A DNA stretch of 35,982 nucleotides from a virus (Duplodnaviria; Caudoviricetes). Below, piece after piece: positions 8,398-34,719 of the stretch; the first letter of the stretch is position 1; each line of letters starts with the position of its first letter. Under the pieces are notes generated by a model, which worked only from the letters and a program-made list of their open reading frames with translations, did no database searches and was not told the DNA's origin. Location: positions 1 through 35,982 of the IMG/VR virus record IMGVR_UViG_3300032253_000246; one strand, written 5' to 3'. A program made the position numbers and the translations under genes.

Positions 8398-8679
8398 TTA
8401 ATCGCCCGTGTAGTCGGAAAATTCACTTAGTCGATTTTTATCAATTACCAACAGCCTAGATGGAGGTGCAGTTTGATCACAGTTTATAATCGCTAAATCG
8501 GCATCTTCATCATATTCAAGATAATCATCGTGAATATTACCCCAAACAGATTTTTGGCTCAATTTTTCCTGATCGAACCAATGAAGCAACTCCCACCGTT
8601 CAAAAATGGTGAAGCCTTGAGAGTTCAATTGATTGAGCTTTTCTTCAAGTTTCGTTTTGTATCTTTTTTGGACACCCAT
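8398..8679 (-). CDS. Hypothetical protein, AT-rich antisense moron
   Basis: 93 aa with an AGGAG RBS and its own promoter. Opposite strand and visibly lower GC than the flanking genes. Confidence 0.75.
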   Translation of the reverse strand: MGVQKRYKTKLEEKLNQLNSQGFTIFERWELLHWFDQEKLSQKSVWGNIHDDYLEYDEDADLAIINCDQTAPPSRLLVIDKNRLSEFSDYTGD

Positions 8680-8726
8680 AATCTCGCTCCTGATATTTAA
8701 AGACGTAAATTGATATTAACATTTTT

Positions 8727-8755
8727 AATATAATATTTATAATTATAATATTCAA
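8727..8755 (-). promoter_or_regulatory. Sigma70-type promoter for the moron
   Basis: The minus strand reads TTGAAT-N17-TATATT within a very AT-rich spacer. Confidence 0.6.
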
Positions 8756-8780
8756 GTAATAATTTTAAAGGTTTTTCTAA

Positions 8781-10947: not shown

Positions 10948-13865
10948 TGGCAAAAGCCAAACATACCTATGCAATCCGTCTCAGTGTTGACGGTGGCGGT
11001 AAGGTCAAGGCTGAGCTCATGGATGTGGGCCGCGCTGGTGACAAATCCCTCAAGAAGATTGAGAAAGCGGGTGGCCGTGCATCACTCGGCCTTACCAAAC
11101 TATCTGATCGCGCCCAGGCACTGGCCCGAAATATGAAGTTCCTCTATGGCGCAATTGCCGCCGCCGGGGCCATTCGCGGCCTGCAGGAAATGGTCAAACT
11201 CTATGCCGATTTTGAAGCCGGACTGATCGGTGTCGGCAAGACGGCAAACCTGTCCAAGACCGAACTGGCCGCATTGGGCCAAGACATCGACGCCCTTTCC
11301 AAACGCATCCCGGTGGCGACGGATGAGTTGCTGGCCATTGCCCAAAGTGCGGGCCAGCTGGGGGTGAAGGGTGCCGCCAATATTCTGAGGTTTACCGAAA
11401 CCGTGGCCAAACTCGGCACGGCGACGGATTTGTCCGGCAATGACGCGGCCATGGCTTTGGCGCGTATTCTCAATGTGACCGGGGAGACCATGGATACCGT
11501 GGATGTCCTAGGTTCAGTGATTGTCGCCCTCGGCAATAACTTTGCCGCCACGGAAAGCCAGATTACAGAAATGACCACCGAGATCGCCCGAGCCACCGCC
11601 GTCTTCGGCGTAAGCTCTGCCCAGGCCTCAGCATTGGCTGCGGCATTGGCTTCTGTTGGCGTTAAATCGGAAGTGGCGGGGACGTCCGTTGGTCGGGTTA
11701 TGCATATGATGGATGCCGCAGTGCGCAGTGGCGGCAAGCATCTGGATATTTTGTCTAAAATCACAGGTCAAACCGGTGCAGAAATCAAAACCCTGTTTCA
11801 GAAGGATTCAACCGCTGCCTTCGTGTTGTTCATCGAAGGGCTGAAACGGATCAGCGATGCTGGTGGATCAGCGGCGGAAGCCATGGCGGCATTAGGGCTG
11901 TCCGACCAACGTTTGTTAAAAACACTGCCCGTGTTGGCAAACCGTGCCGATCTATTGGCCACAGCGCTTAATCTTGCCAGCCGTGAGACCGAAAACGCCA
12001 CGGCCCTGAATGAGGAAGCGGCAAAGGCGTTCGAGAGCCTGAACAGCCAGACGGAGATGATGTGGAACAACATCAAATCATTGGCGCGTTCTATCGGTGA
12101 AGATTTGGCTCCCGGTGTGACCACTGCGGTCAAGGAGTTGGGTAGTCTGGCCAATCAGGCCAGCGTCGCCTATGAGCAATTGAAACTGCTGGCCCAGGGT
12201 GATTCCAATCTTGAGGGCCTGAGCCTTGGCAGTACTCGTTCCATTGTCGAGGAACGCCGAGCCGAGCTTCAGGAAATTTCCCGAGAATTAAACGAATTAA
12301 GCGACGTCGGGTTCATGGATGATCCCCTTGGCTGGGGCCGCAAGGTGGCGTTGGAACGCCAGCTTAAGGAAAAGACGGCCACCTACCAGCAATGGGCGAC
12401 GAAGCTCGCCTGGATGCAGAGGGATATGGGCGGCAAGCCAAACCCTGAAACCAGCACGGTTGCGCCGGGTGGCACGGTTGAGATTGATATCAAGGCCGCT
12501 CAAGCCAGATCTGATCGCATCACCAAACTTGAGAAAGACCTGCAGCGGCAACTGTTCATCCTGACCCATCAGGGGGCAGATCGTATTCGTGCTGAATATG
12601 AACAACTGGCAAAAGACATTGAGGCATTGCTTGCCCCGGACGGCAGCAATCAGTCTCAGGTGGATGCCTTGATGGATCAGGCCAGCTCCGTCCGTGACGC
12701 CAAGCTGGCAAGGCTGGCTGCCAAGGCACAAGAGGCTGCTGATCGAATTGCTGACGCAAATCGTAAAATTATAGACGGATTACGCGCCGAGCATGACGCG
12801 CTCGCCATGACCGACAAACAGCGCTTTGTCTCTCAGGCCCTGCGGCGATTATCGGCGGAGGCCACGGACGTTGAACAGCGACAGGTGCGGCAATTGGCCG
12901 GGGCCTTGTTTGAGGAACAACAAGCCATTGAAGCCCGCAACAAGGCCGAGCAGGAATCTACCAAACTAAAAGAAAAAGGCCGCGCTCTCACGGAAAGCCT
13001 GCGCACGGCTCAGGAAGCGTATAAGGCCGAGATTGCGGATCTCAATCGCCTGCTTGATGAAGGTGCGATTGCTCAGGAAGCTTTTGCTCGAGCAGCTGAA
13101 GAAGCCTATGGCCGTATGCTCAGCGCAAGCCGGGAATGGTCGGATGGTGTCACCCGAGCTTTGCGCGATTACGCTGAAGAGGCTGGCAATGCTGCCAAGC
13201 AATTTGAGCAGGTTACCACCCGGTCGCTGAAAGCCGGAGAAGACGCGTTTGTTCAGTGGGCCAAGACCGGCAAGTTCAATGCTGCCGACTTGTTCAACAC
13301 CATTGCCGAAGAGGCAATGCGCGCGGCCATTCGCATGTCGGTCATCAAGCCGTTCAGTGGTTTTTTGGAAAACGTGTTCAGTTCCATCGGGGCCAACCTG
13401 TTTAGTGGCGGATCATCTTCGCCTGTGGGGGATTTTCCTGCGGCGGGGCCGGTGATGGTTGCTCATACGGGCGGTGTCATTGGCATGGATGCTCTCGTCA
13501 GTCGTTCCGTTGACCCAGCTGTGTTTGCTTCTGCACCACGGTTTCATGGTGGCGGTGTGGTCGGCGGTGAAGTTCCGATCATTGCCAAACGTGGCGAGAC
13601 CGTTTTTACGGCTGGCCAGATGCGGATGCTGGGAGCGGGATTGGGGCAAAAGCCTGAGGTTAAGGTTGTCGTCAACGTTGATAACCGGGCACCGGGAACG
13701 GAAGCCACAGTTCAAACCCGCAAGGATTCCAGCGGTAACCTTGGTCTAGATATAGTTGTCGAGAAAGTTGAGGGCAAACTCGCACGCAATATTGGGCGCG
13801 GTGAAGGATTGGCCCCAACCCTGGAACGCCGTTACGGCCTTAACCCGGCGGCGGGGAGTTATTGA
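10944..13865 (+). CDS. Tail tape measure protein
   Basis: 973 aa, Ala-rich and helical. N-terminal TP901-type core (ALGNNFAATESQI); C-terminal lambda-type region (WSDGVTRALRDY, FHGGG, EVPIIAKRGETV). Confidence 0.93.
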   Translation: MMAKAKHTYAIRLSVDGGGKVKAELMDVGRAGDKSLKKIEKAGGRASLGLTKLSDRAQALARNMKFLYGAIAAAGAIRGLQEMVKLYADFEAGLIGVGKTANLSKTELAALGQDIDALSKRIPVATDELLAIAQSAGQLGVKGAANILRFTETVAKLGTATDLSGNDAAMALARILNVTGETMDTVDVLGSVIVALGNNFAATESQITEMTTEIARATAVFGVSSAQASALAAALASVGVKSEVAGTSVGRVMHMMDAAVRSGGKHLDILSKITGQTGAEIKTLFQKDSTAAFVLFIEGLKRISDAGGSAAEAMAALGLSDQRLLKTLPVLANRADLLATALNLASRETENATALNEEAAKAFESLNSQTEMMWNNIKSLARSIGEDLAPGVTTAVKELGSLANQASVAYEQLKLLAQGDSNLEGLSLGSTRSIVEERRAELQEISRELNELSDVGFMDDPLGWGRKVALERQLKEKTATYQQWATKLAWMQRDMGGKPNPETSTVAPGGTVEIDIKAAQARSDRITKLEKDLQRQLFILTHQGADRIRAEYEQLAKDIEALLAPDGSNQSQVDALMDQASSVRDAKLARLAAKAQEAADRIADANRKIIDGLRAEHDALAMTDKQRFVSQALRRLSAEATDVEQRQVRQLAGALFEEQQAIEARNKAEQESTKLKEKGRALTESLRTAQEAYKAEIADLNRLLDEGAIAQEAFARAAEEAYGRMLSASREWSDGVTRALRDYAEEAGNAAKQFEQVTTRSLKAGEDAFVQWAKTGKFNAADLFNTIAEEAMRAAIRMSVIKPFSGFLENVFSSIGANLFSGGSSSPVGDFPAAGPVMVAHTGGVIGMDALVSRSVDPAVFASAPRFHGGGVVGGEVPIIAKRGETVFTAGQMRMLGAGLGQKPEVKVVVNVDNRAPGTEATVQTRKDSSGNLGLDIVVEKVEGKLARNIGRGEGLAPTLERRYGLNPAAGSY

Positions 13866-14344
13866 TGCCTGTCATTTGGCCCGCCAACCTCCCATTGCCA
13901 AGCATTCAGGGTTATGGCGTTCATCCGGGTGAAGCAATCCTGCGCACGGAAATGGAAGCGGGGCCTGCCCGGCAACGCCGTCGTTACACCCAGGTGCCGA
14001 GCCGGATCTCCGCACGCTGGACGTTCCGCCGCGATCAATTTGCCCTGTTTGAGTCCTGGTATCGCTGGCACGCCAAGGAAGGCGGCGAGTGGTTCGAGAT
14101 AGAGCTTTTGGGTGGTATCGGCATGTCTATCCATGAGGCCAGGTTTACTAAACCTTTCGATGCCAAACCACGATCTGGAATTTTATGGGAAGTCACCTCT
14201 GAGCTGGAAATCCGTGAACGGCCCGTATTGACAGAAGACGCTTTGGCTATCGCGCTCGACAGCGACCTTTCCGCTTTATTCGCCACCGTTGATCGGTTGC
14301 ACGGGCTGGTGAACGTTTCACTAATCAGCCCCTATTCCTGGTAG
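13865..14344 (+). CDS. Distal tail protein-like (gpM position)
   Basis: WPANLPLP, LRTEMEAGPARQRRR and FESWY motifs; TGATG overlap with the tape measure stop. Confidence 0.75.
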   Translation: MPVIWPANLPLPSIQGYGVHPGEAILRTEMEAGPARQRRRYTQVPSRISARWTFRRDQFALFESWYRWHAKEGGEWFEIELLGGIGMSIHEARFTKPFDAKPRSGILWEVTSELEIRERPVLTEDALAIALDSDLSALFATVDRLHGLVNVSLISPYSW

Positions 14345-14354
14345 GAGAAATTAT

Positions 14355-15560
14355 ATGACAATGCAGACCGACCTTCAGGCGGCTGTAGACAAAGCCACGG
14401 CAGCCAGCGCTAGGCTGCACGATGTCGTTCATGGCGATGCAGTGTCCACCGTTACAACAGATTCCGGCCAGGTCAAGACGGTGGCCAAGGCGGTTGCTGA
14501 CATCGAGGCCGATATTGATGCCAGCCGCATTGAGCTCGATCAAAAGGTTGCCGATGCCGCAGCCAGCGCCACTTCTTCTCAAGCCGCCCGCACTGCATCG
14601 GAAACGGCTGAAACCGCATCAGAGACAGCCCAGTTAGGTGCCGAGATTGCCGAAGCCGGAGCGCTTACTTCGGAGACAAACGCGAACGCCGCGAAAGCAG
14701 CATCCGAAATCGCCCGCGATGCGGCCAGCGCCAGTGCCGGTCAGGCCGCGACAAGCCAGTCGGCGAGCGCTGCTTCAGAATCAGGTGCTGCTGCAAGTGC
14801 CCTGGCGGCTGTCATTTCCGAAAACAACGCCGCGACCAGCGACGGCATTGCAACCACGAAAGCCACAGAAGCTTCCGCCAGCGCCGATGCCTCCGCTCTT
14901 TCCGCAACGGCCTCCGCCGCCAGCGCCTCAGAGGCCAGCGGTGCAGCCGCGTCCTTGAACCTGCCGACCGCGACTGGACAGGCGGGACAGTATCTTCGGC
15001 AAAAACAGGATGAGACAGGCCTTGAATATGCTCAGGTCGATCTCGCCAGCCGGGTCGCCAAAAGCGGTGACACCATGACGGGTGACCTGACCCTGCCCAA
15101 TCTGGTTGCGACCGGTAACCTCCAGTCAGGGGCTGTCGGTGATGATGGCCGCAACACGGGGTTCAAGATCGCTGACGGCACGGATATTGGTGAACTTAAC
15201 CGGGTTAGCCAATATTACGACGACCTCATTGATAATTGCGCAGGCTATATCCCGGGTGGCAATTGCAACACCGACCTTCAATGGACCCCGCCTGACGGGA
15301 ATTGGTGGAACTGGGGGCTAGGCTTCTCGCCTGCCAATCCCAACGGTTATGACTTTGCCGGAGGTCAGACGATTGGGTATCAAACGGTACCGGTTGGCTT
15401 TGTTTACGCCTCCTACAACCTGGCTGCTGATGAGATCGGTGGCGGCGAATACCGCCGAGACTTCAACAACTGCAATTGCGGCGGCTTCAACTGTTATTCG
15501 AATTGTAACTGTAACTGTGCCTGCGCTTGTGATTGCGACTGCAATTGCGGCGATGCCTGA
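14355..15560 (+). CDS. Tail fibre-like protein with Ala/Ser-rich shaft and Cys-rich C-terminus
   Basis: AGGAG RBS; Stf-like Ala/Ser repeats; fibre motif VAKSGDTMTGDL; ends NNCNCGGFNCYSNCNCNCACACDCDCNCGDA. Confidence 0.8.
   Translation: MTMQTDLQAAVDKATAASARLHDVVHGDAVSTVTTDSGQVKTVAKAVADIEADIDASRIELDQKVADAAASATSSQAARTASETAETASETAQLGAEIAEAGALTSETNANAAKAASEIARDAASASAGQAATSQSASAASESGAAASALAAVISENNAATSDGIATTKATEASASADASALSATASAASASEASGAAASLNLPTATGQAGQYLRQKQDETGLEYAQVDLASRVAKSGDTMTGDLTLPNLVATGNLQSGAVGDDGRNTGFKIADGTDIGELNRVSQYYDDLIDNCAGYIPGGNCNTDLQWTPPDGNWWNWGLGFSPANPNGYDFAGGQTIGYQTVPVGFVYASYNLAADEIGGGEYRRDFNNCNCGGFNCYSNCNCNCACACDCDCNCGDA
14550..14954 (+). repeat. Low-complexity Ala/Ser/Thr/Glu heptad-like protein repeat (fibre shaft)
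   Basis: Recurrent AxxS(A/E)xx units such as ARTASET, AETASET, AKAASEI, AATSQSA and SAASESG. Confidence 0.7.
15471..15548 (+). repeat. xC dipeptide repeat
   Basis: Codons such as aat tgt aac tgt aac tgt gcc tgc gct tgt gat tgc gac tgc aat tgc. Mixed synonymous codons indicate selection at the protein level rather than a DNA slippage repeat. Confidence 0.9.
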
Positions 15561-15572
15561 GGAGCTTGATTG

Positions 15573-16463
15573 ATGATCCAGCCTTTCACACGGCACTTCC
15601 CAGGGTTGGGGGTGCCGGTTCTATTATCTGTGCTGCGCGATACGCGGCGGGTTACTCTCAGAACCTTTCGTGCGGTAGCGAAAGCGCAAGCCCTTGATAA
15701 GGGAACTCGGTCCGCGAAAGCCACTGCTATTACCAATCGCATGCTCCGTCACGCAAAACCAAAGACCGATTGGGCTTATCGCTCCAAGCTGATTGATGGT
15801 GCCGTTCTCGATCCCAAATTCGCAGGGCAGACCTTCGAACCCTTGGGCGGGGTTTGCCTGGATCTGGATGCCGCCATGGGAGACGCCGAATGGAGTGATT
15901 ATGGAAACTGGGTGTTCCCTCTGGATCAACAAGGAGCGCCGGGAATACCCTTTAATCGCTATATCGAAACCACCAACACCAAGGCCCGTACGCCGCGTCT
16001 TCTTCAACTGAAAAAGGTTAACTGCGCCTTGCAGGTCTATGTTCCGTTTGGGTCCTGCGACTTTTCTAATTGCAGTTTCAGCATTGCGCATCATCCCGAC
16101 TATGGAATGATTGGCAATCTTGATCCAGGAGCCAAAGTTACCTTCGCGGAGGTACTCAAAGGCGCATCTCGCGCCTTCCCAAAACTTGCAATATCCGGTC
16201 CGGCTGAAGTGGCCCCCGATGGGTCTGCATTGCTGACAGTGTCGCTCAAAACCTCAAGCGGCACCCTGATTAGAGACGCGTCGCCACAGGTTTATCTCGA
16301 ACAGACAGCCGGATACCTGCCCAAACGTCGTGTGGTACCACAGGACGGCAATGCGCAATTCAAGGTATCGGCTCTCGGCCTCGAGGTTGGTGACAGCATC
16401 AGGGTCAAAGCCGGGTTCCGTCATTATGCTGGGTTGGCTGAGCATACGCTGCAGGTTATCTGA
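15573..16463 (+). CDS. Hypothetical protein with a putative C-terminal Ig-like beta-sandwich
   Basis: GGAG RBS at 15561. The last ~95 aa show an alternating beta-strand pattern (LAISGPAEV...LLTVSLK...VYLEQTAGYLP...AQFKVSALGL...IRVKAGF). Confidence 0.7.
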   Translation: MIQPFTRHFPGLGVPVLLSVLRDTRRVTLRTFRAVAKAQALDKGTRSAKATAITNRMLRHAKPKTDWAYRSKLIDGAVLDPKFAGQTFEPLGGVCLDLDAAMGDAEWSDYGNWVFPLDQQGAPGIPFNRYIETTNTKARTPRLLQLKKVNCALQVYVPFGSCDFSNCSFSIAHHPDYGMIGNLDPGAKVTFAEVLKGASRAFPKLAISGPAEVAPDGSALLTVSLKTSSGTLIRDASPQVYLEQTAGYLPKRRVVPQDGNAQFKVSALGLEVGDSIRVKAGFRHYAGLAEHTLQVI

Positions 16464-17485
16464 TGCTTAATGTCTTTTTGGGTTATGCCTGCAATTTTAA
16501 ATGCGGCTACTGTCTGCAATCGCCAGGTTCCCTGCCACCCGCCCAGAACCGCAGAAACACTGAGCAATTTGTCGAAAAAATCGTCCCCTTTTTGCAAAAG
16601 AACGGCATCGATGAGATCGCCTATTGGGGCGGCGAGCCGCTTCTTTACTGGTCCCAGATCAAGCCTATTCATGAGGGACTGCTGCACGCCGGTTTAACGT
16701 TCAAGTTTGTTAAATTCGTCACCAATGGATCGCTCCTTGAAGATCATCATGCGGAAGCCCTGAACAGTTGGAACGCTTATGTGGTCATTAGTCGGCATGA
16801 GGCAGAGGGAGAGGGCGCGCCGCACTGGGACAAGGTCGCCAAGCTCTGCCGTTCAAGTGTTTCATTTTTGTTTACCCATGGTGACATCGTTGCCTGGCCT
16901 TGGTTCCAGTTTTTGGATGGGTTGGAGCAACGTTGGGGTCGACCATTCTTTCCTTATGTTCACTGGGTACGGGCGACAGCCGGGTGCGATTCCAGGTTCT
17001 ATCTGACCCATGATGACCTTGATCACCATGTTCCCCATCTTTGGGATATGGCGGAACGGCGCTTGGCAGGTGACCGGCATGCCCGCTCCATGTTCGAGGG
17101 CCATCTTCGCGACTGGCGTCGGGATTTATATCCTGACGGTGACAGCAGACCAATGTGCCATGGCGATCATCACATCTCTGTTGATCTCGCGGGCAACCGT
17201 TACGGCTGTCATCACTCGGCTCGGGAAGAACTCAGGACCGGCAATATTTTCGTTGCAGAAGGGCCAACACCGAAAACAGAGCACGCCATTGCGCATGTCG
17301 AGAAATTTGTGAAGAGCGGGGAGTGTATGGTTTGTCCAATACGGTCCTGGTGCCGGGGAACCTGCCATCTCTCCAACACTCACGATGTGGACTGCCGCCT
17401 GGCCAAGGAAAAACACAAACTGCTCGCCTGGATTGACGCCCAGGAAATTGGCCCTAACGACCGTAACTCAATAAAGGTTCCCTGA
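16463..17485 (+). CDS. Radical SAM protein with SPASM-like C-terminal domain (rSAM-1)
   Basis: CNFKCGYC, WGGEPLL and TNGSLL motifs; C-terminal MC...VDLAGNRYGC...CMVCPIRSWCRGTC...C. Confidence 0.92.
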   Translation: MLNVFLGYACNFKCGYCLQSPGSLPPAQNRRNTEQFVEKIVPFLQKNGIDEIAYWGGEPLLYWSQIKPIHEGLLHAGLTFKFVKFVTNGSLLEDHHAEALNSWNAYVVISRHEAEGEGAPHWDKVAKLCRSSVSFLFTHGDIVAWPWFQFLDGLEQRWGRPFFPYVHWVRATAGCDSRFYLTHDDLDHHVPHLWDMAERRLAGDRHARSMFEGHLRDWRRDLYPDGDSRPMCHGDHHISVDLAGNRYGCHHSAREELRTGNIFVAEGPTPKTEHAIAHVEKFVKSGECMVCPIRSWCRGTCHLSNTHDVDCRLAKEKHKLLAWIDAQEIGPNDRNSIKVP

Positions 17486-17488
17486 CAC

Positions 17489-18865
17489 ATGACAGACAAT
17501 CCTCAATTCCGCCTGACCATGCGGGGGCGGAACGGCTACTTGCGCCATTTGCTCTACCGACCCCACGAGTCCCAGTTGGTCTGGGAGGATGACGGCGAGC
17601 GTGTTCCCTTGGCTGCGATTGGTATGGGATATGAGGACCAGGACCGCGCCTGGAAATCAGCTTTCCCGATGAGCCCGGATAATCCAGCCCGCAAGTCGAG
17701 AGCCGTGCGCACGCTCAAAATTCAGATGGGTCTCAATTGCAACTTCTCCTGCGCTTATTGCAACCAGGCAAGCCAAGTGGGGCAAGCCAACGGTAACGTC
17801 GCCGATGCTCGGGCATTTCTGGAAAATCTTCCCAATTGGCTTCAGGCTGATCCGGATAATCTCAGGATTGAGTTTTGGGGCGGTGAGCCGTTTGTTTATT
17901 GGAAAGCACTCAAGGTTCTGGGTGAGGAATTACGCAAAAAATTCCCCAAGGCTCATTTTAACATCATTACCAATGGCTCGCTTCTTGATGATGACAAAAT
18001 CAACTGGCTGGATGAGCTGAATTTTGGTGTCAGCATCAGTCATGATGGACCAGCCCACAAAGCGACGCGTGGTCCCGATCCGCTGGAAACACCGAAAACA
18101 CGCCAAGCTATCCGCTCTCTTTATGACCGGCTGTTTCCGAAGGGCAAGATCGGTTTTGGCTGTGTGCTGACCAAGGATAACCGGTCCCTGGTTGCTGTGC
18201 GAAAATACATTGGTGAAAGGCTCGATATTCCGGCCCGTAATATTCCGCTATCGACCGAAGAAATTTTGCTCCCCTACGATCAGGGTGGAATGGCGTTATC
18301 GCCGGTTTCGGTTGAGGAACAGGAACAGTTCTTGGCGGATGTATTCTGGGAGGCCGTTCGCGGTGGTTCCATGCCGGTGGGTGCTGTCCATCGCAAGTGC
18401 GAGGATTTTTACCGTTCCCTCGCTCAAGGTCGACCGGTCCGAACACTGGGCCAGAAGTGCGGCATGGACAAACCTGAGCATCTTGCCGTCGATTTGAAGG
18501 GCAACGCTCTGACTTGCCAGAACACCAGTGCTTCAAAGGGCCATGGTATTGGCAATGTTGGTGCCTTCGATGATATTCGCCTGACCACGTCCCGGCATTG
18601 GTCAACAAGGCTCGAGTGCAACCGCTGCCCCGTTGTCCAGCTTTGCAAAGGGTCCTGCATGTTTTTGGAGGGCGATCTGTGGGATCAGGCTTGTGACAAT
18701 AGCTACACCTGGAATCTCTCCATGCTGGCGGCCGCGCTCTATTGGCTGACCCGGCTGGTTCTAGTTGAGATCGAGGGACCGACACGGCGATCAGGTATGC
18801 CGAACACTGTGCCGGTCATCCGTTTAACGGATTTGGAGTTCGCCGACGGAGGGCCTGATGCCTGA
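17489..18865 (+). CDS. Radical SAM/SPASM protein with N-terminal extension (rSAM-2)
   Basis: CNFSCAYC, WGGEPF, TNGSLL and SISHDG motifs; C-terminal KCG...VDLKGNALTC...CNRCPVVQLCKGSC...C. Confidence 0.93.
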   Translation: MTDNPQFRLTMRGRNGYLRHLLYRPHESQLVWEDDGERVPLAAIGMGYEDQDRAWKSAFPMSPDNPARKSRAVRTLKIQMGLNCNFSCAYCNQASQVGQANGNVADARAFLENLPNWLQADPDNLRIEFWGGEPFVYWKALKVLGEELRKKFPKAHFNIITNGSLLDDDKINWLDELNFGVSISHDGPAHKATRGPDPLETPKTRQAIRSLYDRLFPKGKIGFGCVLTKDNRSLVAVRKYIGERLDIPARNIPLSTEEILLPYDQGGMALSPVSVEEQEQFLADVFWEAVRGGSMPVGAVHRKCEDFYRSLAQGRPVRTLGQKCGMDKPEHLAVDLKGNALTCQNTSASKGHGIGNVGAFDDIRLTTSRHWSTRLECNRCPVVQLCKGSCMFLEGDLWDQACDNSYTWNLSMLAAALYWLTRLVLVEIEGPTRRSGMPNTVPVIRLTDLEFADGGPDA

Positions 18866-19400
18866 TCCTTCTCTTTCTCAAGCGATAAAAGAAGCTTATG
18901 CGGTAGCACCGTCTGACGTGGTGATCTTGCATACTTTGGAACTGCGGCATCCCGCATTTAAAGATGATGAAGGTCTGCCAACAGCCATTCGCGTCGTTCG
19001 TGACCATGTGGATTTGACGGCGCGGCTTGAATCTGAAGCGCCATTAGATGGCGGGATCATGGTGACGTTCGTGGCGTTGGCGTTTGATTTGTCATTGCCA
19101 CCCATCGATACCGCGCCTGTGCCGGAAATTACGGTCACACTGGATAACGTATCTCGTGAGATTGTCCGGCATCTGGATGCGGCGGTGGCGACGCAAGATC
19201 GAATTGAGGTGACGTACCGACCTTACCTTTCAACAGATAAGGAGGGGCCACAAATGGATCCTCCGATTACCTTGGTGTTGACCGAGGTGGAGGCAAACGC
19301 CCTTCAGGTCGTCGGGCGAGCGCGAATGCTTGATGTCGGCAATAAAGCATTCCCGTCTGAGACCTATACGGCGTCACGGTTTCCAGGACTGGCGAGATAA
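18858..19400 (+). CDS. Tail tip protein, DUF1833-like (gpL position)
   Basis: AIKEAYA, LHTLELRHP, LDNVSREI, VTYRPYLS and FPGL motifs; upstream of NlpC/P60 and J. Confidence 0.8.
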   Translation: MPDPSLSQAIKEAYAVAPSDVVILHTLELRHPAFKDDEGLPTAIRVVRDHVDLTARLESEAPLDGGIMVTFVALAFDLSLPPIDTAPVPEITVTLDNVSREIVRHLDAAVATQDRIEVTYRPYLSTDKEGPQMDPPITLVLTEVEANALQVVGRARMLDVGNKAFPSETYTASRFPGLAR

Positions 19401-23365: not shown

Positions 23366-23665
23366 ATGACGAAATGATTCACAACAAAAATTGTCGAAGA
23401 TATTGTCTCCGAAGGAGTCAGTGATCGCGAGATATCCCAACTATTGGATATAGCGGCTTACGCAGTGGAATCCATTGCGCCTACGCTTGCGAAGATGGCC
23501 GGTTTCGACATGTCTGATTTTTCATTGGCAAAACAGCGCGGTGTCTCGGGCTATGAGCTGCTCTTAACTCGAGAAAAAACAAAGGGGCACGAAAGTTGGA
23601 TTGCGGAGTTTAAACACGGAGACAAAAGTGTAAGGGTTTTACTGGTTGTGTCAGAGCAAGGTTAA
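23366..23665 (+). pseudogene. Hypothetical gene with an in-frame TGA at codon 4
   Basis: AGGGGA RBS, then ATG ACG AAA TGA TTC ACA. The same frame stays open into the ORF-track protein 23444-23665. Confidence 0.6.
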
Positions 23666-24600
23666 AGATTTGCCGGTAAATCCCAATCCTTAGGACGAGG
23701 GTCTTCTGTTTGATGAAATTGCCGAACCAGTTTTAGGAACTGAAGGAAATCCTTGTTCTCCTCCGTGAGGCGATTACAGGTCGCCCAATCCACTTCAAGC
23801 CTCTCTCGTGCGGGGATCAATATTTGGCTTTCCGTCGGGTTTTCCGGGTCGATTTGGATCAATCCGATACCATGTAACGAAAAGAGCATTCGTAGCTCCT
23901 TCATCGTGTCCGTACCTTCAATCTCTGCGGCTGCGAGATATCCAAAATTTGCCCATGACGAGTTTGAGACTGCCTGGAAAAAAGACTCCCGGACGTTAGA
24001 ACGATTTAGAAGGATTTTTACTTCAAATGACCAGAGCTTGGTTTTCTTATCGGCGTACTCTTTGACCAGATCCTTTACTTCTTGATGCCAATCGGCTGTC
24101 AGGTTCTCCATTCCGACGATATCGGGGTAGAGCCATTTATTGCCTTTTGGCCCCTGCCTGTTCGATGATTTCTTTTCATCGATGCGCTTAGAATAAACAC
24201 TAAACTCAGACCACAGGTATTCAGAAAGCAAGGGGTATAGATCGGCTTCTTTTAAAGTTCCGCTTCCGGCTATCAGGGGGTGGGTCGCACTTGTTTCTTC
24301 CGCCTCAGCAACTTCAGCCTGGTCGGTTTTCTCTGTCCAGTAGTACTGGCGCGGTCGTCCTTCCGTAGTTTTGACTTGAGGGCTTCGTCTCTGAAGTGCT
24401 GGGCGCTGAGACGCAATCTCACGAATAATTTGCTGCACGAGGTCGTCATCTGTTTGGATAGATGCGCTATTTTCTTTCTTTTCCTGACACTCGGCGGGAA
24501 AGCTCTCGAATATCCACTGAGCTATTTGGCGAGCCGTAAATTTTTGTTCTGTGCGCTCAGATAAAAATCCGACAACCGTCTTAGCAAGATTTAGTCCCAT
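23662..24600 (-). CDS. HrgA/COG2958-like protein (N-terminal HTH plus restriction-endonuclease-like fold)
   Basis: YPDIVG...WSFEVK...FFQAVSNSSWANFGYL, a PD-(D/E)xK-like motif. Likely start is the ATG at 24600 (MGLNLAK) after GAGGGG. Confidence 0.8.
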   Translation of the reverse strand: MGLNLAKTVVGFLSERTEQKFTARQIAQWIFESFPAECQEKKENSASIQTDDDLVQQIIREIASQRPALQRRSPQVKTTEGRPRQYYWTEKTDQAEVAEAEETSATHPLIAGSGTLKEADLYPLLSEYLWSEFSVYSKRIDEKKSSNRQGPKGNKWLYPDIVGMENLTADWHQEVKDLVKEYADKKTKLWSFEVKILLNRSNVRESFFQAVSNSSWANFGYLAAAEIEGTDTMKELRMLFSLHGIGLIQIDPENPTESQILIPARERLEVDWATCNRLTEENKDFLQFLKLVRQFHQTEDPRPKDWDLPANL

Positions 24601-24616
24601 AGTATTTCCAATCCCC

Positions 24617-27600
24617 TCAATTCGGTCCGGTCGCAGATTGATCATCAGATTTTCCACTGCCTGTGGTGTTTCCGGTTTCCTTCGCGGAACCTCCCAGCTG
24701 GTCATAAATCTGACTGCCCAACCACTTTGAAACCAGTTCCTGTAAGTCGGGTTTACTCATGTAGTCGGTAAATAACTCCTCGTTGAGCTCCATACGTTCG
24801 ATGAAAAGAGATTCTAGAACTTCGCTAAAAACCAGTTGGAATTTATCGAGAGAGTTTACCTCCGCAGCCCTGCGTAAGGCCTCGTTTTGGCTTGCTGCTT
24901 CGGCGATTTGGTCGAAAAATAACTGATCCGCTTCCGTCAGTTCGCCGCCAAAACGTTCATTGATGAGATCGACCAGCCGGGATAATGGAACATCTTCTTC
25001 TCGCGCCATCCCCGTGCCGACCTCTCGTGGTCCGTCGAGTGGCGTAGCCTGACCGTCCTGCAATTTTATGGATCCTTCGCTTATCTTTTGCAGACGGTAG
25101 TAATCCAGCTCAATTTCTTCGTCGAACTGGTAACCTGGGCCGTTTGGTCGTTTGGGTAACTTCAACACCAGATGTCTTAGATAGGTAAACAGCTTCTCAA
25201 GATCACTATCCTGATATGGGATCACCTGACTCAAGAAACTGTACAGGTTGCGATAAGCCTGAGTTTTGCCACGCCACAACTCGCTTTCTTCTTCATCATT
25301 GTTTTGCATATCTGCAAAACGCGCCACAGCCTGATCAAGAATGGCATTCATGTTCTTGTGGTCCGTTGGGCTCTGACGGCGTTTGGGAGCAAAGAAAATA
25401 TGGACGAACGCATCCACCTCTGTTTCCAGATAAATTCCCGAAGCATCCAGCTCGGCCTTGATTTCATAAAGTCGGTCGGGATCGACCTCCTCACCCATCA
25501 CTGAACCTTCATAATACTGTCGGAAAGCCTCCTGAATCTCGTCAGGGTCGTTTACGAAGTCCAGAACAAAGGTGTCGTCTTTCAGCGGATGTGTCCGGTT
25601 GAGGCGTGACAAGGTCTGCACGGCTTGAATGCCCGCCAATCGCTTGTCTACATACATGGTGTGCAATAAGGGCTGATCAAAACCGGTTTGATATTTTTCC
25701 GCCACCAACAACACACGGTATTCCGGTTTGGCAAAAGTCTCAGGTAACTCTTTCTCTTTTAGCCCATCATTCATCTCGACTTCGGTATATGTTTTTTCGG
25801 GCACCTTATCGTCTTCCACGGTGCCCGAAAAAGCCACCAGGCTCTTGATGGAATAACCCTTTTCATTGATATAGCGATCAAATTCATGCTTGTAGCGCAC
25901 CGCCTCAAGTCGTGATCCGGTTACCAGCATCGCTTTGGCGTGACCGCCGATTTTGTGGCGGGTATGATGTTGAAAATGTTCGACCATGATTTCTGTTTTC
26001 TGGCCGATGTTATGTGGATGTAGCCGCATGAAGCGAGCCAATGCCCGAGCCGCTTTCTTGCGTTCAACGTTCGGATCATCCTCAGCTTTTTTAATCAGCT
26101 TGTAGTAGGTTTTATAGGTCACATAATTTTTCAGGACATCTTCGATAAACCCTTCCTCGATAGCCTGACGCATGGTGTAACGGTGAAAGGGTTCGCCATC
26201 GCGGCCAAAAATCACCAACGTCTTGTGCTTGGGGGTGGCGGTGAAGGCGAAAAAGCTCATGTTTGGTTGGCGACCTCTTTTTGCCATGGCGCGAAACAGT
26301 CGCTCCAGTTCCACTTCCCCTTCTTCTTCAGCTAGCTCCTGAGCCTTCTTGCGCAATTCAGCACCGCCCAGAACGCCTTTCAGCTCGGTGGCCGTCTCAC
26401 CTGATTGTGAGCTGTGAGCCTCGTCAATAATGACGCCGTATTTGCGAGTTGGCAGGTGGCTGCCGCCGCTGCCACGTTCCTCAGCCATCTTCATCAATTG
26501 CCCAGAAACAAACGGAAACTTTTGCAAGGTCGTAATGATGATCGGCACGCCCGATTCCAATGCTTCGGCAAGCTGACGTGAATCTTCATCAATCTTCTGC
26601 ACCACACCTTGTCTATGATCAAACTGATAGATGGTGTTTTGTAATTGACGGTCGAGCACCACCCGATCGGTGATCACGACCACGCTGTCAAATATCCGTT
26701 CATCCTGCTCGTTATGCAAAGAAGAGAGCCGATGCGCCAGCCATCCGATGGTGTTGCTCTTGCCGCTGCCCGCCGAGTGTTCAACAAGGTAGTTGTGCCC
26801 AACACCCTCGGCGCTTGCTGTCGATACCATTTGCCGCAAGGCCTGCAACTGATGATAACGAGGGAAAATCATCGTTTCCTTGCGTACCTTCTTGCCTTCA
26901 TCGGTGACCTTTTCTTCGATATTCAGATGAAGAAAGCGGGCAAGAAGATCTAGAAAGCTATCGCGCGACAGGACCTCTTCCCAAAGATAAGCGGTTTTGT
27001 AGTTGCGTCCATCTTTGTCCGGCTCGTTCCCAGCGCCACCGTGGTTTCCCTGATTGAACGGCAAAAAATAGGAACTGGTCCCGGCGAGGCGCGTGGTCAT
27101 ATGCGCTTCTTCTGTGTCCACGGCGAAATGCACCAGTGTGCGCTTGGTGAACTGAAAAATAGGCTCGCGTGGATCGCGGTCGTGACGGTATTGATGAATG
27201 GCATTGGCCGTCGTTTGGCCGGAAAGGGGGTTTTTTAGTTCCAGCGTCACAATCGGAACGCCGTTAACGGATAACACAACATCCAGTGAGTTTTTGTTTT
27301 TGGCGCTGTAATAAAGCTGGCGTGTAATGCCTAACCGATTGGCACAGTAGCGGGCCTCTAACTCGGGATTAAGACCGTGGGCCGGGCGGAAGAAAGCGAT
27401 ACGCAGGGTTTTGCCGAAGCATTTGAAACCATGGCGCAGGGTTGTTAACGTTCCATGGGTATCCAGCCATTTGCACAGTGCTTGCAGCACCCGTTCTCCG
27501 GTCTCGTCACCGTGTAATGCTTCCAACTTCTCCCATGTCTTTGTCTGTGTCTCACGGATAAAGGCTAGCGCCTCGGCGGGAAAGATAGCCCGTTCAGGGT

Positions 27601-27691
27601 CAAATCCGTCTGAAGGAAGTTTTGTATAGCCATCAGCCAGCAAAACAGCCTCAATGGCGGTTTCAAAGGCAGCTTCACTAGTCTGCTTCAT
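24617..27691 (-). CDS. hsdR: Type I restriction enzyme R subunit
   Basis: D...NGVPIVTLELK nuclease motif, HSAGSGKS, DEAH, FTATPK, TGFDQP and QTLSRLNR. Start MKQTSE at 27691 overlaps the HNH stop. Confidence 0.95.
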   Translation of the reverse strand: MKQTSEAAFETAIEAVLLADGYTKLPSDGFDPERAIFPAEALAFIRETQTKTWEKLEALHGDETGERVLQALCKWLDTHGTLTTLRHGFKCFGKTLRIAFFRPAHGLNPELEARYCANRLGITRQLYYSAKNKNSLDVVLSVNGVPIVTLELKNPLSGQTTANAIHQYRHDRDPREPIFQFTKRTLVHFAVDTEEAHMTTRLAGTSSYFLPFNQGNHGGAGNEPDKDGRNYKTAYLWEEVLSRDSFLDLLARFLHLNIEEKVTDEGKKVRKETMIFPRYHQLQALRQMVSTASAEGVGHNYLVEHSAGSGKSNTIGWLAHRLSSLHNEQDERIFDSVVVITDRVVLDRQLQNTIYQFDHRQGVVQKIDEDSRQLAEALESGVPIIITTLQKFPFVSGQLMKMAEERGSGGSHLPTRKYGVIIDEAHSSQSGETATELKGVLGGAELRKKAQELAEEEGEVELERLFRAMAKRGRQPNMSFFAFTATPKHKTLVIFGRDGEPFHRYTMRQAIEEGFIEDVLKNYVTYKTYYKLIKKAEDDPNVERKKAARALARFMRLHPHNIGQKTEIMVEHFQHHTRHKIGGHAKAMLVTGSRLEAVRYKHEFDRYINEKGYSIKSLVAFSGTVEDDKVPEKTYTEVEMNDGLKEKELPETFAKPEYRVLLVAEKYQTGFDQPLLHTMYVDKRLAGIQAVQTLSRLNRTHPLKDDTFVLDFVNDPDEIQEAFRQYYEGSVMGEEVDPDRLYEIKAELDASGIYLETEVDAFVHIFFAPKRRQSPTDHKNMNAILDQAVARFADMQNNDEEESELWRGKTQAYRNLYSFLSQVIPYQDSDLEKLFTYLRHLVLKLPKRPNGPGYQFDEEIELDYYRLQKISEGSIKLQDGQATPLDGPREVGTGMAREEDVPLSRLVDLINERFGGELTEADQLFFDQIAEAASQNEALRRAAEVNSLDKFQLVFSEVLESLFIERMELNEELFTDYMSKPDLQELVSKWLGSQIYDQLGGSAKETGNTTGSGKSDDQSATGPN

Positions 27692-28314
27692 GGACAGGCC
27701 CTCCCAATTTTCTTGTTCAACCAAAAGACCATGACTTGGGCGTATTCGGGTAGGTCACCTGGTTGGGTTCCGTCCCATTTTTGGATTTCACGCGCCGCAT
27801 TTATTGGACCCCGGTCAATCTGTTGCTTAAAGGCGTCGAGCACAGCCTTGCGATTGCTGACGAGGCGGCTCCAGTTCAGGTTCAACACATCGTCCAAAGC
27901 AGATTTGATGTCTTCGTCGTTGGAAGTGATTCTCCCATCACCAAGAAAGCGGATCTGCGGCTCAATGGGGTGCGCTGGGTCGGCGGGACAAAAACATAGG
28001 TCAGCGTTGCCTTTGCGGGTATCGCAGTATTGTTCTTCTTTTGAGTTTCCGTGTCCGCCACGACATGCACCCAATAAATTCCGGTAGTCCAATTGGCGGC
28101 CCGGGTAATTGGCTTGACACTGCCAATGCTCGATTTTCATCTTTTGGGGATCTGGCTTTATTCGCGATTGGCAATAGCAACACAGGCCGCGTTGCTCAGT
28201 AACCAGACTTTGCCGTAAAGCATCTTTATCCGCGTAATTATCATAGTCGGCACGCGCTTGTTGGCGATGGGCGGTTAGGGAGCGGGGTTCGCCGTTTTTC
28301 TGGATGGTTCGCAT
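27688..28314 (-). CDS. HNH endonuclease (PtuB/TIGR02646-like)
   Basis: EQRGLCCYC, IEHW, NLLGAC, CDTRKG and LNLN motifs. Confidence 0.85.
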   Translation of the reverse strand: MRTIQKNGEPRSLTAHRQQARADYDNYADKDALRQSLVTEQRGLCCYCQSRIKPDPQKMKIEHWQCQANYPGRQLDYRNLLGACRGGHGNSKEEQYCDTRKGNADLCFCPADPAHPIEPQIRFLGDGRITSNDEDIKSALDDVLNLNWSRLVSNRKAVLDAFKQQIDRGPINAAREIQKWDGTQPGDLPEYAQVMVFWLNKKIGRACP

Positions 28315-29627
28315 TACTCCGAGCCCTCCAAAAAGGTAATAAGAGAATTGGCGCGGGTTAGTTCGGGTTCGCTATCTCCCAATTGTTTTTCCAACGACGT
28401 AATTTTTTCGCGCGCTTTCTTGAAATCTTCCTGATCGATCAACTCGAACAAGGCTCGTAACTCCGCCTCAATGGCTTTGTTGCGCACCGGCGCTCCCATC
28501 AGTTCTTGCAAGATGCGATTGGCATCCATGCCATAGGCCTCGGCGGGAATGGTCGAAATCACCTTGCAATTATCAAACTCCAGGAAGCGCACACAGCGCG
28601 CCTCCACCTCACCCAGCACCAACGGAGAATGAGTAGTGACCACAAACTGGCAATTCTCGAATATTTTCTGCAAGCGGCCCAACACATCCCGTTGCCATTT
28701 CGGGTGCAGGTGTAATTCGATTTCATCGATAAGGACCAGCGCTACGCCCTCGGCAATGGGGTTGTCGCTGTCAGGGTTGGCGATGGCCAGGCGACGGGTC
28801 AGGTCGAAAACGAGCGCCAGCAGCCCGCGTTCACCGTCTGAGAGTTGGTGCAGGAAAAAGGGCAACCCGCGTTTGTCGACGACAAAGCCAAGACGCGGGC
28901 TTTCCTGAATGCGCAAATTGCTGAAATCCGGCACCAGATCCGTGACCACCGCGCGCAAAGCGTCGAGAACCTTGAGGCGACGCGGTTCTTTGGTTGCCCC
29001 GAGTTTTTCTTGTGTCCGGAACCAGTGCATGAACTCGCGCAATTCGACTTCGCGATCATGCAAGGCGCGGCCATAAGCGATAGAGGGGTCAAAGGGCTTG
29101 ACCTCTGGCAGGGTGCGAGGCTGTCCCGGCAATTGCCTTTTGGGGGTGAAGTAAACGGCAAGCGGCGGGTTGGCCGCGTTCTTCAACTTGGCCAGTGCAG
29201 TTCGCGTTTCCCCCATTCCTGCTTCCAAATCGCCGGTTAGCGTACGCGTGCGGAGTGATTCAACGAAGTCGGTGGCCTCCGCTGACACCTCTGCCTGGCG
29301 CAGCAGCACAAATCGATCACCCTTTTCGTCAGTGTCGCGCAGACGCTGTATTCCGGCATTTATAATCTGGCCGTCGACCTCCAGCCGTGCCGATACTTCC
29401 AATGAGCTTTTGTCGCCGTGGATTTCATCATTGGTGAAATAGTTGGGGGCCGATCGTGAGGGCGTAAATTCCGGCATGGCCCGTGAAAGTAAAACGGCTA
29501 AAACTTTCAGCAGGGTGGATTTGCCGACGCCATTTACCCCGGCAATCAGGGTAACATCGCGTTCAAAGTCGATGTCGATCTGTTCGAAACCACCGCAATG
29601 GACAAGGCTGAGACGCTCCAGTTTCAT
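28314..29627 (-). CDS. ABC/AAA-type ATPase (PtuA-like)
   Basis: Walker A GVNGVGKS, signature LSDGER, Walker B LIDEIELHLHPKWQ, H-loop TTHSP. Confidence 0.9.
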   Translation of the reverse strand: MKLERLSLVHCGGFEQIDIDFERDVTLIAGVNGVGKSTLLKVLAVLLSRAMPEFTPSRSAPNYFTNDEIHGDKSSLEVSARLEVDGQIINAGIQRLRDTDEKGDRFVLLRQAEVSAEATDFVESLRTRTLTGDLEAGMGETRTALAKLKNAANPPLAVYFTPKRQLPGQPRTLPEVKPFDPSIAYGRALHDREVELREFMHWFRTQEKLGATKEPRRLKVLDALRAVVTDLVPDFSNLRIQESPRLGFVVDKRGLPFFLHQLSDGERGLLALVFDLTRRLAIANPDSDNPIAEGVALVLIDEIELHLHPKWQRDVLGRLQKIFENCQFVVTTHSPLVLGEVEARCVRFLEFDNCKVISTIPAEAYGMDANRILQELMGAPVRNKAIEAELRALFELIDQEDFKKAREKITSLEKQLGDSEPELTRANSLITFLEGSE

Positions 29628-30847
29628 ACAGCCATCTCCTCAACGGGGATTTGGCCGGTCACGGCGGCGGTGATCAGCGCGGAGCGGCGTTCCTTAGCCA
29701 GTGCAATAGACTGCTGCAAGGCCATTGTTAGTTCTTTTGCCTTGTTTTGATTTTTGGCGACAAATTCAATTATTTCACGTTGCTCGCTTTCCGGAGGAAC
29801 AGCTAAGCGTATTTCAAAGAAGTTCTCTGGATAGAGTCGTAGTCGAGACGACCAAACGCCTTTTGACCAGCGATTTACCTCGGCGACAAATGGCTTGGAG
29901 CGGCAAAGTAGCTCGATAAACTCAGGCAAGAGTTGCCAGTTCGATGTGTAAACGTGATAGTCCGGGCTCACGATACCTTCGAGCGGAGAGATGCCCATTG
30001 CGCCCATCCATCCCCATAACGTATTGATAACGAGATCGTCTGGATAACAAAGCTTATATCCAGCCTTATCGTCAGCCAGAAACATATTCACGTCCTTTTC
30101 TGACCGTGCCGTTACACCTGTAATATGAGAGACAGAGAGAAGCTCTTCTTCTCCAGTCTTTGAACGTTGATCTCGGACAGTGAACAATACTTTTGCACGC
30201 TCTAGATCCCAATGTTCAGGAATGTCCCCTAACCAATCGAGGCCTGAGGGTTTGAGGGGGATGTCAGGGTTTATGCCCTTGGTGACAGCTTGACTAATCA
30301 GTGCGGTCCGCTTTTCTTCTAACAGGGCCAGCATGCGTTCCTTTTCCGCCACCAGTGCATCAATCCGCGCGGTTTCACGGTCAAGATAGTCGGCAATGAC
30401 GCGTTGAAAGGCGTAGTCGGGAATGGACAGGTATAAATTTCCTAAATCCTCCGCTGAAACTGCATCGTAGGTTGATCCTGTTGCGACCTCATTGAGTTTT
30501 GCTCGATGGTAGTGCATCGTCCACCATCCGAATTGAGGATCAACATTGGTCCATGACACAGCACAAAGTCCGCGTCCTATCCCATAAACTTGATCAGCCC
30601 TATTTAATGCTCCGACTGGGGCACGCACAGAAACCAGTAGATCTCCGGGAGCAGCTATTTTCGGGGGGGAGTTACAGGTATGTTTATATTGAGGTGAGGT
30701 AGCTCCAAACTCTGCGTTTCCTTGCAAAAAGGGAAGGCCGACATTTTCATCAAACCTCGTCACCTCTTCCGATGAAGGTGACTGTCCCATATTTAATGCC
30801 GAAACGTACTTGAGACGTTTGCGTTCAATGGAAATGGCAGTATTCAC
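29624..30847 (-). CDS. hsdS: Type I R-M specificity subunit
   Basis: Two variable TRDs with conserved helices (IADYLDRETARIDAL...LISQAVTKG; ERRSALITAAVTG) and WLGDIPEHW. Confidence 0.93.
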   Translation of the reverse strand: MNTAISIERKRLKYVSALNMGQSPSSEEVTRFDENVGLPFLQGNAEFGATSPQYKHTCNSPPKIAAPGDLLVSVRAPVGALNRADQVYGIGRGLCAVSWTNVDPQFGWWTMHYHRAKLNEVATGSTYDAVSAEDLGNLYLSIPDYAFQRVIADYLDRETARIDALVAEKERMLALLEEKRTALISQAVTKGINPDIPLKPSGLDWLGDIPEHWDLERAKVLFTVRDQRSKTGEEELLSVSHITGVTARSEKDVNMFLADDKAGYKLCYPDDLVINTLWGWMGAMGISPLEGIVSPDYHVYTSNWQLLPEFIELLCRSKPFVAEVNRWSKGVWSSRLRLYPENFFEIRLAVPPESEQREIIEFVAKNQNKAKELTMALQQSIALAKERRSALITAAVTGQIPVEEMAV

Positions 30848-34351: not shown

Positions 34352-34374
34352 AGTTCTAATGCCTGATTTATCCT

Positions 34375-34719
34375 ATGAAGAAAAATGACGAGAAGCGGAT
34401 AGCTGCCAGACTAGCCAAGATCATGACCATGATGTGCGTCCGCAATACGAAACTGGAGGACATCCACGCTGGGATGGTGCCCATCAGCAAGACAGGGGAT
34501 TTTTCAGACGTTATGGTCGTTGACGCCGAAGGGCGGAAAATTCCGTGGCCGGAAGTCTCGCATTTTGATGATGGCGCGATGCGTGATTTGATGCGGCAGA
34601 TTGTTAATCGGCTTTATACATTTCAGTTGAAAACGGATGACCCCCAATTCCAGAAGCTGATTGACCGCTGGGCTTCAGTCGCCGACAAATGGGACGATCC
34701 GGAAATGGATGAATTTTAA
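34375..34719 (+). CDS. Hypothetical protein
   Basis: 114 aa ORF on the same strand, 23 nt after the HNH gene; protein-like composition; no motif recognised. Confidence 0.65.
   Translation: MKKNDEKRIAARLAKIMTMMCVRNTKLEDIHAGMVPISKTGDFSDVMVVDAEGRKIPWPEVSHFDDGAMRDLMRQIVNRLYTFQLKTDDPQFQKLIDRWASVADKWDDPEMDEF

Follow-up and report, generated by a model that had tools for sequence, protein, structure and literature searches.

Genetic organization of the cassette

The 35,982-nt DNA analysed here in full (hereafter, the window) comprises positions 1 to 35,982 of the virus record IMGVR_UViG_3300032253_000246 (Caudoviricetes), a provirus with lambda-like head genes, a tail tube, a tape measure, DUF1833-NlpC-TipJ genes and lysis genes, after which come type I restriction genes and an integrase. 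Its tail module contains four co-oriented genes encoding a fibre-like protein with a Cys-rich end, a partner protein and two radical S-adenosylmethionine (SAM) enzymes with SPASM domains, rSAM1 and rSAM2, which an earlier note on this DNA had proposed as a candidate maturation system for a virion protein. The features of the cassette and the genes bordering it are as follows:

14355..15560 (+), tail-fibre-like protein, 401 aa, candidate substrate
15465..15560 (+), C-terminal stretch of the fibre (residues 371-401) with the Asn/Ala/Asp-Cys ladder and the Cys-x-Asp-x motif at its end
15573..16463 (+), partner protein, 296 aa counted from the ATG
16463..17485 (+), rSAM1, radical SAM/SPASM enzyme, 340 aa, without N-terminal extension
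17489..18865 (+), rSAM2, radical SAM/SPASM enzyme, 458 aa, phrog_1802, with an N-terminal extension of three strands
13865..14344 (+), phrog_384, a conserved virion gene bounding the variable fibre slot on its left
18858..19400 (+), minor tail protein with DUF1833, bounding the fibre slot on its right

The four genes are coupled as the earlier note had described, with a 12-nt gap (15561-15572), a TGATG overlap (16461-16465) and a 3-nt gap (17486-17488), and an 8-nt overlap (18858-18865) joins rSAM2 to the DUF1833 gene, which profile searches showed to be followed by NlpC/P60 and TipJ. The upstream gene that the note called "Dit-like" is indeed a virion gene, but no profile match gives it that name. 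We found no obvious compositional break, as had also been claimed: GC is 0.53-0.59 and GC at third codon positions (GC3) 0.55-0.60 in the cassette, compared with GC3 of 0.51-0.63 in the tail and head genes, and there is a mild GC dip to 0.52-0.54. The statement that separate promoters are lacking needs a small amendment, in that the plus strand of the cassette has no promoter-like site save one 9/12 match within rSAM2. Gene coupling, GC3 and a comparison of fibre slots (see below) rule out the reading of the cassette as a moron, in line with the note, to which these looked like native late genes. In addition, no small precursor, protease or exporter is encoded in the window cassette, as the note had said, and the arrangement differs in this from a classical cluster for peptides made by the ribosome and modified after translation (RiPPs), with its short leader-core precursor, protease and exporter.

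A Cys ladder ends the fibre-like protein

The fibre-like protein consists of an N-terminal anchor (residues ~1-65), an Ala/Ser-rich stalk (~60-200), a tip domain (~255-370) bearing two isolated Asn-Cys pairs, and a Cys ladder (372-398), and its C-terminal end is Cys-Gly-Asp-Ala. Residues 1-290 contain no Cys, while 13 are found in residues 295-398, i.e., all 13 lie within the last 107 residues; these are preceded by Asn (nine), Ala (two) or Asp (two). The ladder has a strict two-residue period and is encoded by mixed synonymous codons, which rules out a microsatellite artefact as its origin and indicates that it is maintained at the protein level. The stalk matches the tail-fibre family phrog_24159 (E 2e-6) across a low-complexity region, and Atlas matches to tail-fibre families at 0.85-0.89 serve as a lead only. 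Since most related tail modules open this slot with a gene that shares the N-terminal anchor, anchor and tail-module position together identify the protein as a predicted tail fibre. Searches (tblastn) of cultured phages with the fibre tip, and with one small substrate, returned no match.

rSAM2 and the Asn-Cys ladder occur together

Linkage between rSAM2 and the ladder was assessed in both directions; locus counts include the same contig repeatedly, and a few contigs recur between scans. We sampled 90 rSAM2 loci (66 viral, 22 genomic and 2 from cultured phages), and an Asn-Cys-tailed open reading frame (ORF) was present upstream, within 5 kb, in 70 of the 78 having at least 4 kb of sequence on that side. 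Among the eight misses, L014 and L021 carry the ladder 5.3-6 kb away, variant tails occur in L057 and L233 and a short form in RSP15, and in Achromobacter phage JWF the ladder immediately precedes a Hint domain; no ladder was seen in L018 and in L235, where the gene is truncated. Conversely, a DNA pattern for NCNCNC-stop retrieved 65 viral loci, 48 of which end a called ORF, and all 44 of these with at least 2.5 kb downstream were followed by rSAM2 and the partner. The remaining 17 of the 65 matches do not end a called ORF and comprise 16 off-frame repeats without an rSAM gene and one ladder, cut by a contig edge, with an rSAM gene.

As a control for the slot itself, 80 loci of DUF1833 relatives were fetched and 79 analysed, 56 of them with both slot borders. 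Enzyme and ladder were both present in 5 of these slots and both absent from 49, a motif match fell outside the slot in 2, and the enzyme never occurred alone. Since the 49 enzyme-free slots hold other fibre-type genes, most of which begin with the N-terminal anchor of the window fibre, the cassette is one of several interchangeable fibre modules. A further, less biased set collected with generic motifs contained a ladder in 23 of 27 fully flanked rSAM2-family loci, one via a doubtful ORF, and L310 and L312 of this set have variant tails.

The forward, reverse and control samples contradict the outcome that, according to the earlier note, would have undone its proposal, namely rSAM homologues occurring mostly without Cys-rich fibres, and the two-way linkage supports its suggestion that the fibre C-terminus is the likely rSAM substrate; the chemistry of modification is treated below as a proposal. 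Three points refine the picture. The recurring unit of the Cys-rich tail is an adjacent Asn-Cys rather than NxxC; the two enzymes track different motifs; and in many relatives small adhesin-anchored or tandem 80-170 aa proteins take the place of a long fibre. The cassette is real, tightly coupled and widespread.

Radical SAM/SPASM enzymes

Both enzymes exceed the cut-offs of Pfam PF04055 (39.6 and 37 bits; cut-off 29.5) and of the SPASM model TIGR04085 (34.3 and 29.3 bits; cut-off 27), and both have a CxxxCxxC motif and a seven-Cys SPASM domain. In 36 sequences of rSAM1, C10/C14/C17 and C232, C249, C288, C291, C297, C301 and C311 are invariant, while 61 sequences of rSAM2 share 10 invariant Cys, of which three belong to the SAM cluster and seven to SPASM. 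Seven SPASM Cys would leave three for the first auxiliary cluster (AuxI), as in thioether maturases of the CteB/PapB/CrpC type. rSAM2 matches phrog_1802 with E 2e-55, and a Foldseek search with its AlphaFold2 (AF2) model (pLDDT 91.4) gave CteB as the top match (5why; E 5e-13), followed by the anaerobic sulfatase-maturating enzyme (anSME; 4k37, E 1.3e-12). The stretch of rSAM2 between C91 and C324 is free of conserved Cys, and in an alignment to anSME no Cys occupies the position of C261. The seven-Cys SPASM layout and the CteB-like model are compatible with thioether formation.

Neither enzyme reaches the cut-off of any named family. The curated thioether-maturase cut-offs (PapB 340, SCIFF 425, QhpD 453 and TIGR04463 525) compare with scores of 24-65 bits here, and where anSME would show eight SPASM Cys and a TIGR03942 score above 349 bits, the two enzymes score 38-43. 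Identity as a prokaryotic viperin was rejected, considering that NF038283 gave only 43 bits, over the N-terminal half, against a cut-off of 180. As for a RiPP recognition element (RRE), the three N-terminal strands of the rSAM2 model are not followed by a three-helix bundle, rSAM1 has no extension and no PqqD match was obtained.

Two motifs tracked by the two enzymes

In 52 substrate representatives, Asn precedes 70 of 79 isolated Cys (89%), while Asn at position -3 is at background (11% vs. 14%). NxxC is therefore ruled out as a conserved unit for isolated Cys; within the ladder, the two spacings are indistinguishable. Across 254 substrates, 346 of 390 isolated Cys, irregularly spaced ones included, follow Asn. 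Gly, which makes up 12% of the region, was found before only 2 of 1880 Cys in 193 distinct tips, and after 131 of 1688. Because Gly nearly never precedes Cys, the residue before Cys is probably the acceptor and would need a beta-carbon. In L325-L345 and L312, Ser-Tyr-Cys triplet repeats stand at the tip instead of Asn-Cys, and the rSAM2 sequences of these loci cluster on the tree, which suggests a switch of acceptor to Tyr.

Locus scans for rSAM1 were alignment-based, a single-sequence scan having found one close locus only. The comparison covered 185 loci with a substrate and a partner; the motif was defined as a terminal Cys-x-Asp plus 0-2 residues. Of the 69 loci with rSAM1, 59 showed this ending, compared with 0 of the 116 lacking rSAM1. 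Counting partner clusters at 60% identity in place of loci gave 19/22 and 0/54, and leaving out the loci from the NC-stop search gave 59/69 and 0/83. On a FastTree tree of 86 rSAM2 sequences, rSAM1 presence and Cys-x-Asp each change 11 times, and in 6 supported independent pairs Cys-x-Asp follows rSAM1 in 5.6 and opposes it in 0 (P ~0.03). Tree neighbours contrast CGDS with CGNA and CGDA with CGNQ, and the end motif switches with rSAM1 inside one tip family. Since the close relatives L166 and L183 hold a 2-oxoglutarate (2OG)-Fe(II)-oxygenase-like gene (weak Pfam matches, below cut-off) in the rSAM1 position, rSAM1 is optional.

The partner protein and substrates of relatives

The partner has no Pfam, NCBIfam or PHROG match, and its family comprises 1113 representatives at E<=0.001. 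In its AF2 model (pLDDT 87.6), residues 204-296 are Ig-like and resemble the Ig domains of GH2 enzymes (Z 12.5, rmsd 2.2, 90 aligned) and intimin (Z 11.2), while the N-terminal domain gave no Atlas match. A second partner type (that of L026 and JWF) has no profile similarity to that of the window (HHalign probability 0.1). Since the partner is swapped for an unrelated protein in some phages and missing in others, it is dispensable for some rSAM2 enzymes; a role as tip chaperone or adaptor is likely.

In relatives, ladders cap unrelated proteins, including PHROG tail fibres, collagen-like fibres and 80-170 aa proteins that often occur two or three in tandem. The N-termini of many small ladder proteins match Gly-rich gp38-like adhesins (E 7e-6, 3e-9), and several of these proteins follow S74-type fibres; by homology and position, the ladder would lie at the expected fibre tip. 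One subgroup (L262:8268-9152, L286:9716-10618, L303:8245-9138) has an adhesin-type anchor, an Asn-Cys-rich core and then a ~170-aa domain starting KIIC, with no Pfam or NCBIfam match for this domain and no partner gene. Placed as the Hint domain is in JWF, the KIIC domain may be self-cleaving. In an RP12-like clade (L069:4858-11967, L257, L281), a Cys-tailed peptide of 65-89 aa that carries no annotation is accompanied by three rSAMs and a DUF3050 enzyme, and in L257 and L281 IscU/IscA-like Fe-S assembly genes lie nearby. Other genes found in or beside the cassette (L004, L024, L055, L064, L154) encode 2OG-Fe(II) oxygenases, heme-oxygenase-like and tryptophan-halogenase-like proteins, and TRAP DctP solute-binding proteins. 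In Polynucleobacter and Halomonas records (L065/L236, L237) rSAM2 is in pieces, owing to either decay or sequencing error.

Comparison with known systems

By analogy, the closest working precedent is CrpC of Methanococcus voltae. According to the accessible part of its description (PMC13692751), CrpC has seven SPASM Cys and a predicted open AuxI iron, puts thioethers on a Cys-rich protein rather than a short peptide and, like the window enzymes, is encoded beside that protein (CrpA), which has C-terminal repeats. However, CrpC/CrpA is archaeal and cellular, has C-x-x-Q/D with the Cys ahead of the acceptor and possesses an RRE, and the main text of the paper makes no mention of "phage" (PMC13692751). 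Against TIGR04463, the window enzymes score 24 and 35 bits (cut-off 525).

CteB (SCIFF) is the best structural match to rSAM2, and the PapB (freyrasin) model is the best NCBIfam match of rSAM1. The spacing in PapB is C-x3-D, in contrast to the Cys-x-Asp found here. PapB joins Cys to the carbon alpha to a downstream Asp/Glu carboxylate (PMC12373016, accessible part), a linkage that resembles the reaction proposed below for rSAM1. Unlike these systems, the window enzymes score far under the family cut-offs, and their candidate substrate, a phage tail protein of 401 aa, comes with neither leader protease nor exporter. NxxcB accepts Asn, Ala, Gln and Asp (PMC9389541, accessible part); the NxxcB/NxxcA pair differs from the present case, where isolated Cys have Asn at -1 (89%) and not at -3 (11%). 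Precedent for small rings between neighbouring residues comes from enteropeptin, whose six-membered thiomorpholine is formed from ornithine-Cys with the link at C-alpha (PMC12395415, accessible part), and from TqqB, which makes a Thr-Gln ether between adjacent residues (PMC9389541). However, these are single rings in short secreted peptides, and the comparison is one of ring type, not enzyme relationship. Finally, anSME acts on a protein Cys and is a near-tied structural match of rSAM2, but the window enzymes lack an equivalent of the C261 ligand and no sulfatase is encoded in the window. The cassette would work like CrpC, CteB and PapB yet belongs to none of their families.

We found no description of a phage fibre/rSAM cassette in the literature searched, whose coverage leaves subscription journals largely outside. 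The rSAM genes of RP12/RP31 are merely listed (PMC5468394), a cyanophage rSAM was read as an antibiotic gene (PMC12801897), a CxCxC...GxGxG hairpin sactipeptide has a layout unlike the ladder (PMC10288494) and PMC12579225 has no bearing on the cassette. What has been proposed for bacterial tail-collar or collagen-like proteins is hydroxylation and sulfation by dioxygenases, not rSAM action on phage fibres (PMC2938197, accessible part).

Proposed function and alternatives

We propose that the four genes are a swappable fibre module, in which the two enzymes would cross-link the Cys-rich C-terminal tip of the predicted tail fibre. In rSAM2, the predicted open iron of AuxI would bind the Cys of the substrate, hydrogen would be abstracted from the preceding residue (mostly Asn, and probably at C-beta), and a small Cys-S-C ring would close at every Asn-Cys pair. 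rSAM1, as an optional second enzyme, would link the last Cys to the Asp two residues on, as PapB and QhpD link Cys to Asp, and the Ig-domain partner would probably hold or protect the tip during modification. Such cross-linking would give a rigid tip that resists reduction, is made in the cytoplasm, an environment in which disulfides do not form, and serves host binding; in an alternative geometry, the link might run between chains of a trimer. The explanation we favour, with moderate confidence, is that rSAM1 and rSAM2 form thioethers on the fibre tip, each at its own motif.

Several points weigh against this proposal. In the Foldseek search anSME nearly ties with CteB, and the invariant D327 and H370 of rSAM2 could supply a fourth AuxI ligand. 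Of 353 isolated Cys, 333 belong to three large tip families, on which the Asn rule mostly rests, and Asn is the majority in only 6 of the 11 families with isolated Cys, some having Tyr-Cys or Gln-Cys. The Cys-x-Asp rule for rSAM1 was noticed after the fact, only 5 pairs (P ~0.06) are left without the NC-stop loci, and 10 rSAM1 loci do not end in Cys-x-Asp (eight from one clade, L241 and L380). A whole subgroup of rSAM2-family loci has no partner, L297 has no candidate ladder within ~4 kb upstream and 2.5 kb downstream, and L300 has no ladder. Furthermore, what is shown here is the layout of the genes, their motifs, the pattern of cluster ligands, the fold and the covariation, from which we infer the substrate, the bond type and its regiochemistry, the role of the partner and the location on the virion.

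The same substrate might instead undergo a different chemistry, with C-beta of Cys oxidised as by anSME (to formylglycine, a thioaldehyde or a heterocycle with the Asn amide), possibly yielding a metal-binding or reactive tip. The rank of anSME structures beside CteB (E 1.3e-12 vs. 5e-13), with alignment over the whole enzyme, would suit such an oxidation, as would D327 as an AuxI ligand and the 2OG-Fe(II) oxygenase, heme-oxygenase-like and DctP genes that relatives add. However, the missing counterpart of C261 and TIGR03942 scores of 38-43 against 349 speak for another enzyme type, and the scarcity of Gly before Cys would fit an acceptor residue better than oxidation of Cys only; we regard this alternative as unlikely. 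A shade less likely still is that the ladder is modified but does its work off the virion tip, either clipped as a peptide or with an intracellular role in assembly or in metal or Fe-S handling. RP12-like phages, with their stand-alone 65-89 aa peptides, three rSAMs and DUF3050 enzyme, in some cases by IscU/IscA genes, point in that direction, and two or three tandem small ladder proteins in many phages recall RiPP clusters. In the window, however, the slot's sole fibre-like gene has the ladder as its C-terminus, and no protease gene is present there; small relatives bear an adhesin-type anchor, and a Hint domain placed after the ladder would leave the ladder attached to the fibre.

Asn ladders are common in beta-solenoids, and the Asn-Cys run could be purely structural, holding disulfides or metal in a beta-solenoid or trimer core while the enzymes act elsewhere. 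The few rSAM2-family loci without a nearby ladder (L297, L300) would then be expected, but the enzyme accompanies the ladder in 44/44 testable loci, Asn precedes even irregularly spaced isolated Cys, and the substrate end switches with rSAM1 within a single tip family; we consider a purely structural ladder improbable. Polytheonamide forms an L/D-alternating beta-helix, and the strict two-residue period of the ladder could reflect epimerisation of alternate residues into a tip of that kind. The epimerase EpeE is among the structure matches, albeit far below CteB and anSME (E 6e-8 vs. 5e-13), the epimerase model TIGR04078 is absent from the top matches listed for either enzyme, and isolated Asn-Cys pairs would be left unexplained, making epimerisation highly improbable.

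Thioether formation at the two motifs, if true, would have wider consequences. Known cases of radical SAM cross-linking involve secreted peptides and a small number of cellular proteins; we found no virus-particle case in the literature searched, and the substrate class, a phage fibre tip, is new as far as our literature search shows. The ring size of an adjacent Asn-Cys link is likewise described for no protein in the literature found. The fibre tip of a widespread phage group would be unreadable from sequence alone, and the enzymes would need to be included in predictions of host range, in the heterologous expression of fibres and in fibre swaps. The two motif-enzyme rules offer sharp, cheap tests and suggest new catalysts that staple adjacent residues of peptides, and the scheme is a possible reason for the clustering of rSAM and oxygenase genes beside phage tail genes. 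As a tentative and somewhat doubtful extension, the host-contacting fibre tip of hundreds of phage lineages may be a RiPP-like modified segment, in which the core enzyme rings Asn-Cys, a second enzyme caps Cys-x-Asp and interchangeable oxygenases diversify the product, with sequence motif and enzyme set together programming host recognition.

Host and other features of the window

The nearest genome match of rSAM2 (84%) is a Rhodospirillaceae metagenome-assembled genome (MAG) carrying the same four genes, and an alphaproteobacterial host is therefore likely; further genome matches are to Burkholderiales MAGs and genomes and to Halomonas. On the minus strand, a type I restriction-modification operon (24617-32976) encodes HsdM, HsdS and HsdR, with a Septu-like pair of PtuA ATPase and PtuB HNH protein between HsdS and HsdR. 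Neither the 347-aa ORF behind HsdR (23662-24705, minus strand) nor the two ORFs of 329 and 114 aa ahead of the integrase (33362-34719, plus strand) has an informative Pfam or PADLOC match. Between the head-tail and tail genes, a low-GC gap (8400-8780) contains a 93-aa minus-strand ORF and a promoter-like cluster (one 11/12), and this region is possibly a small moron.

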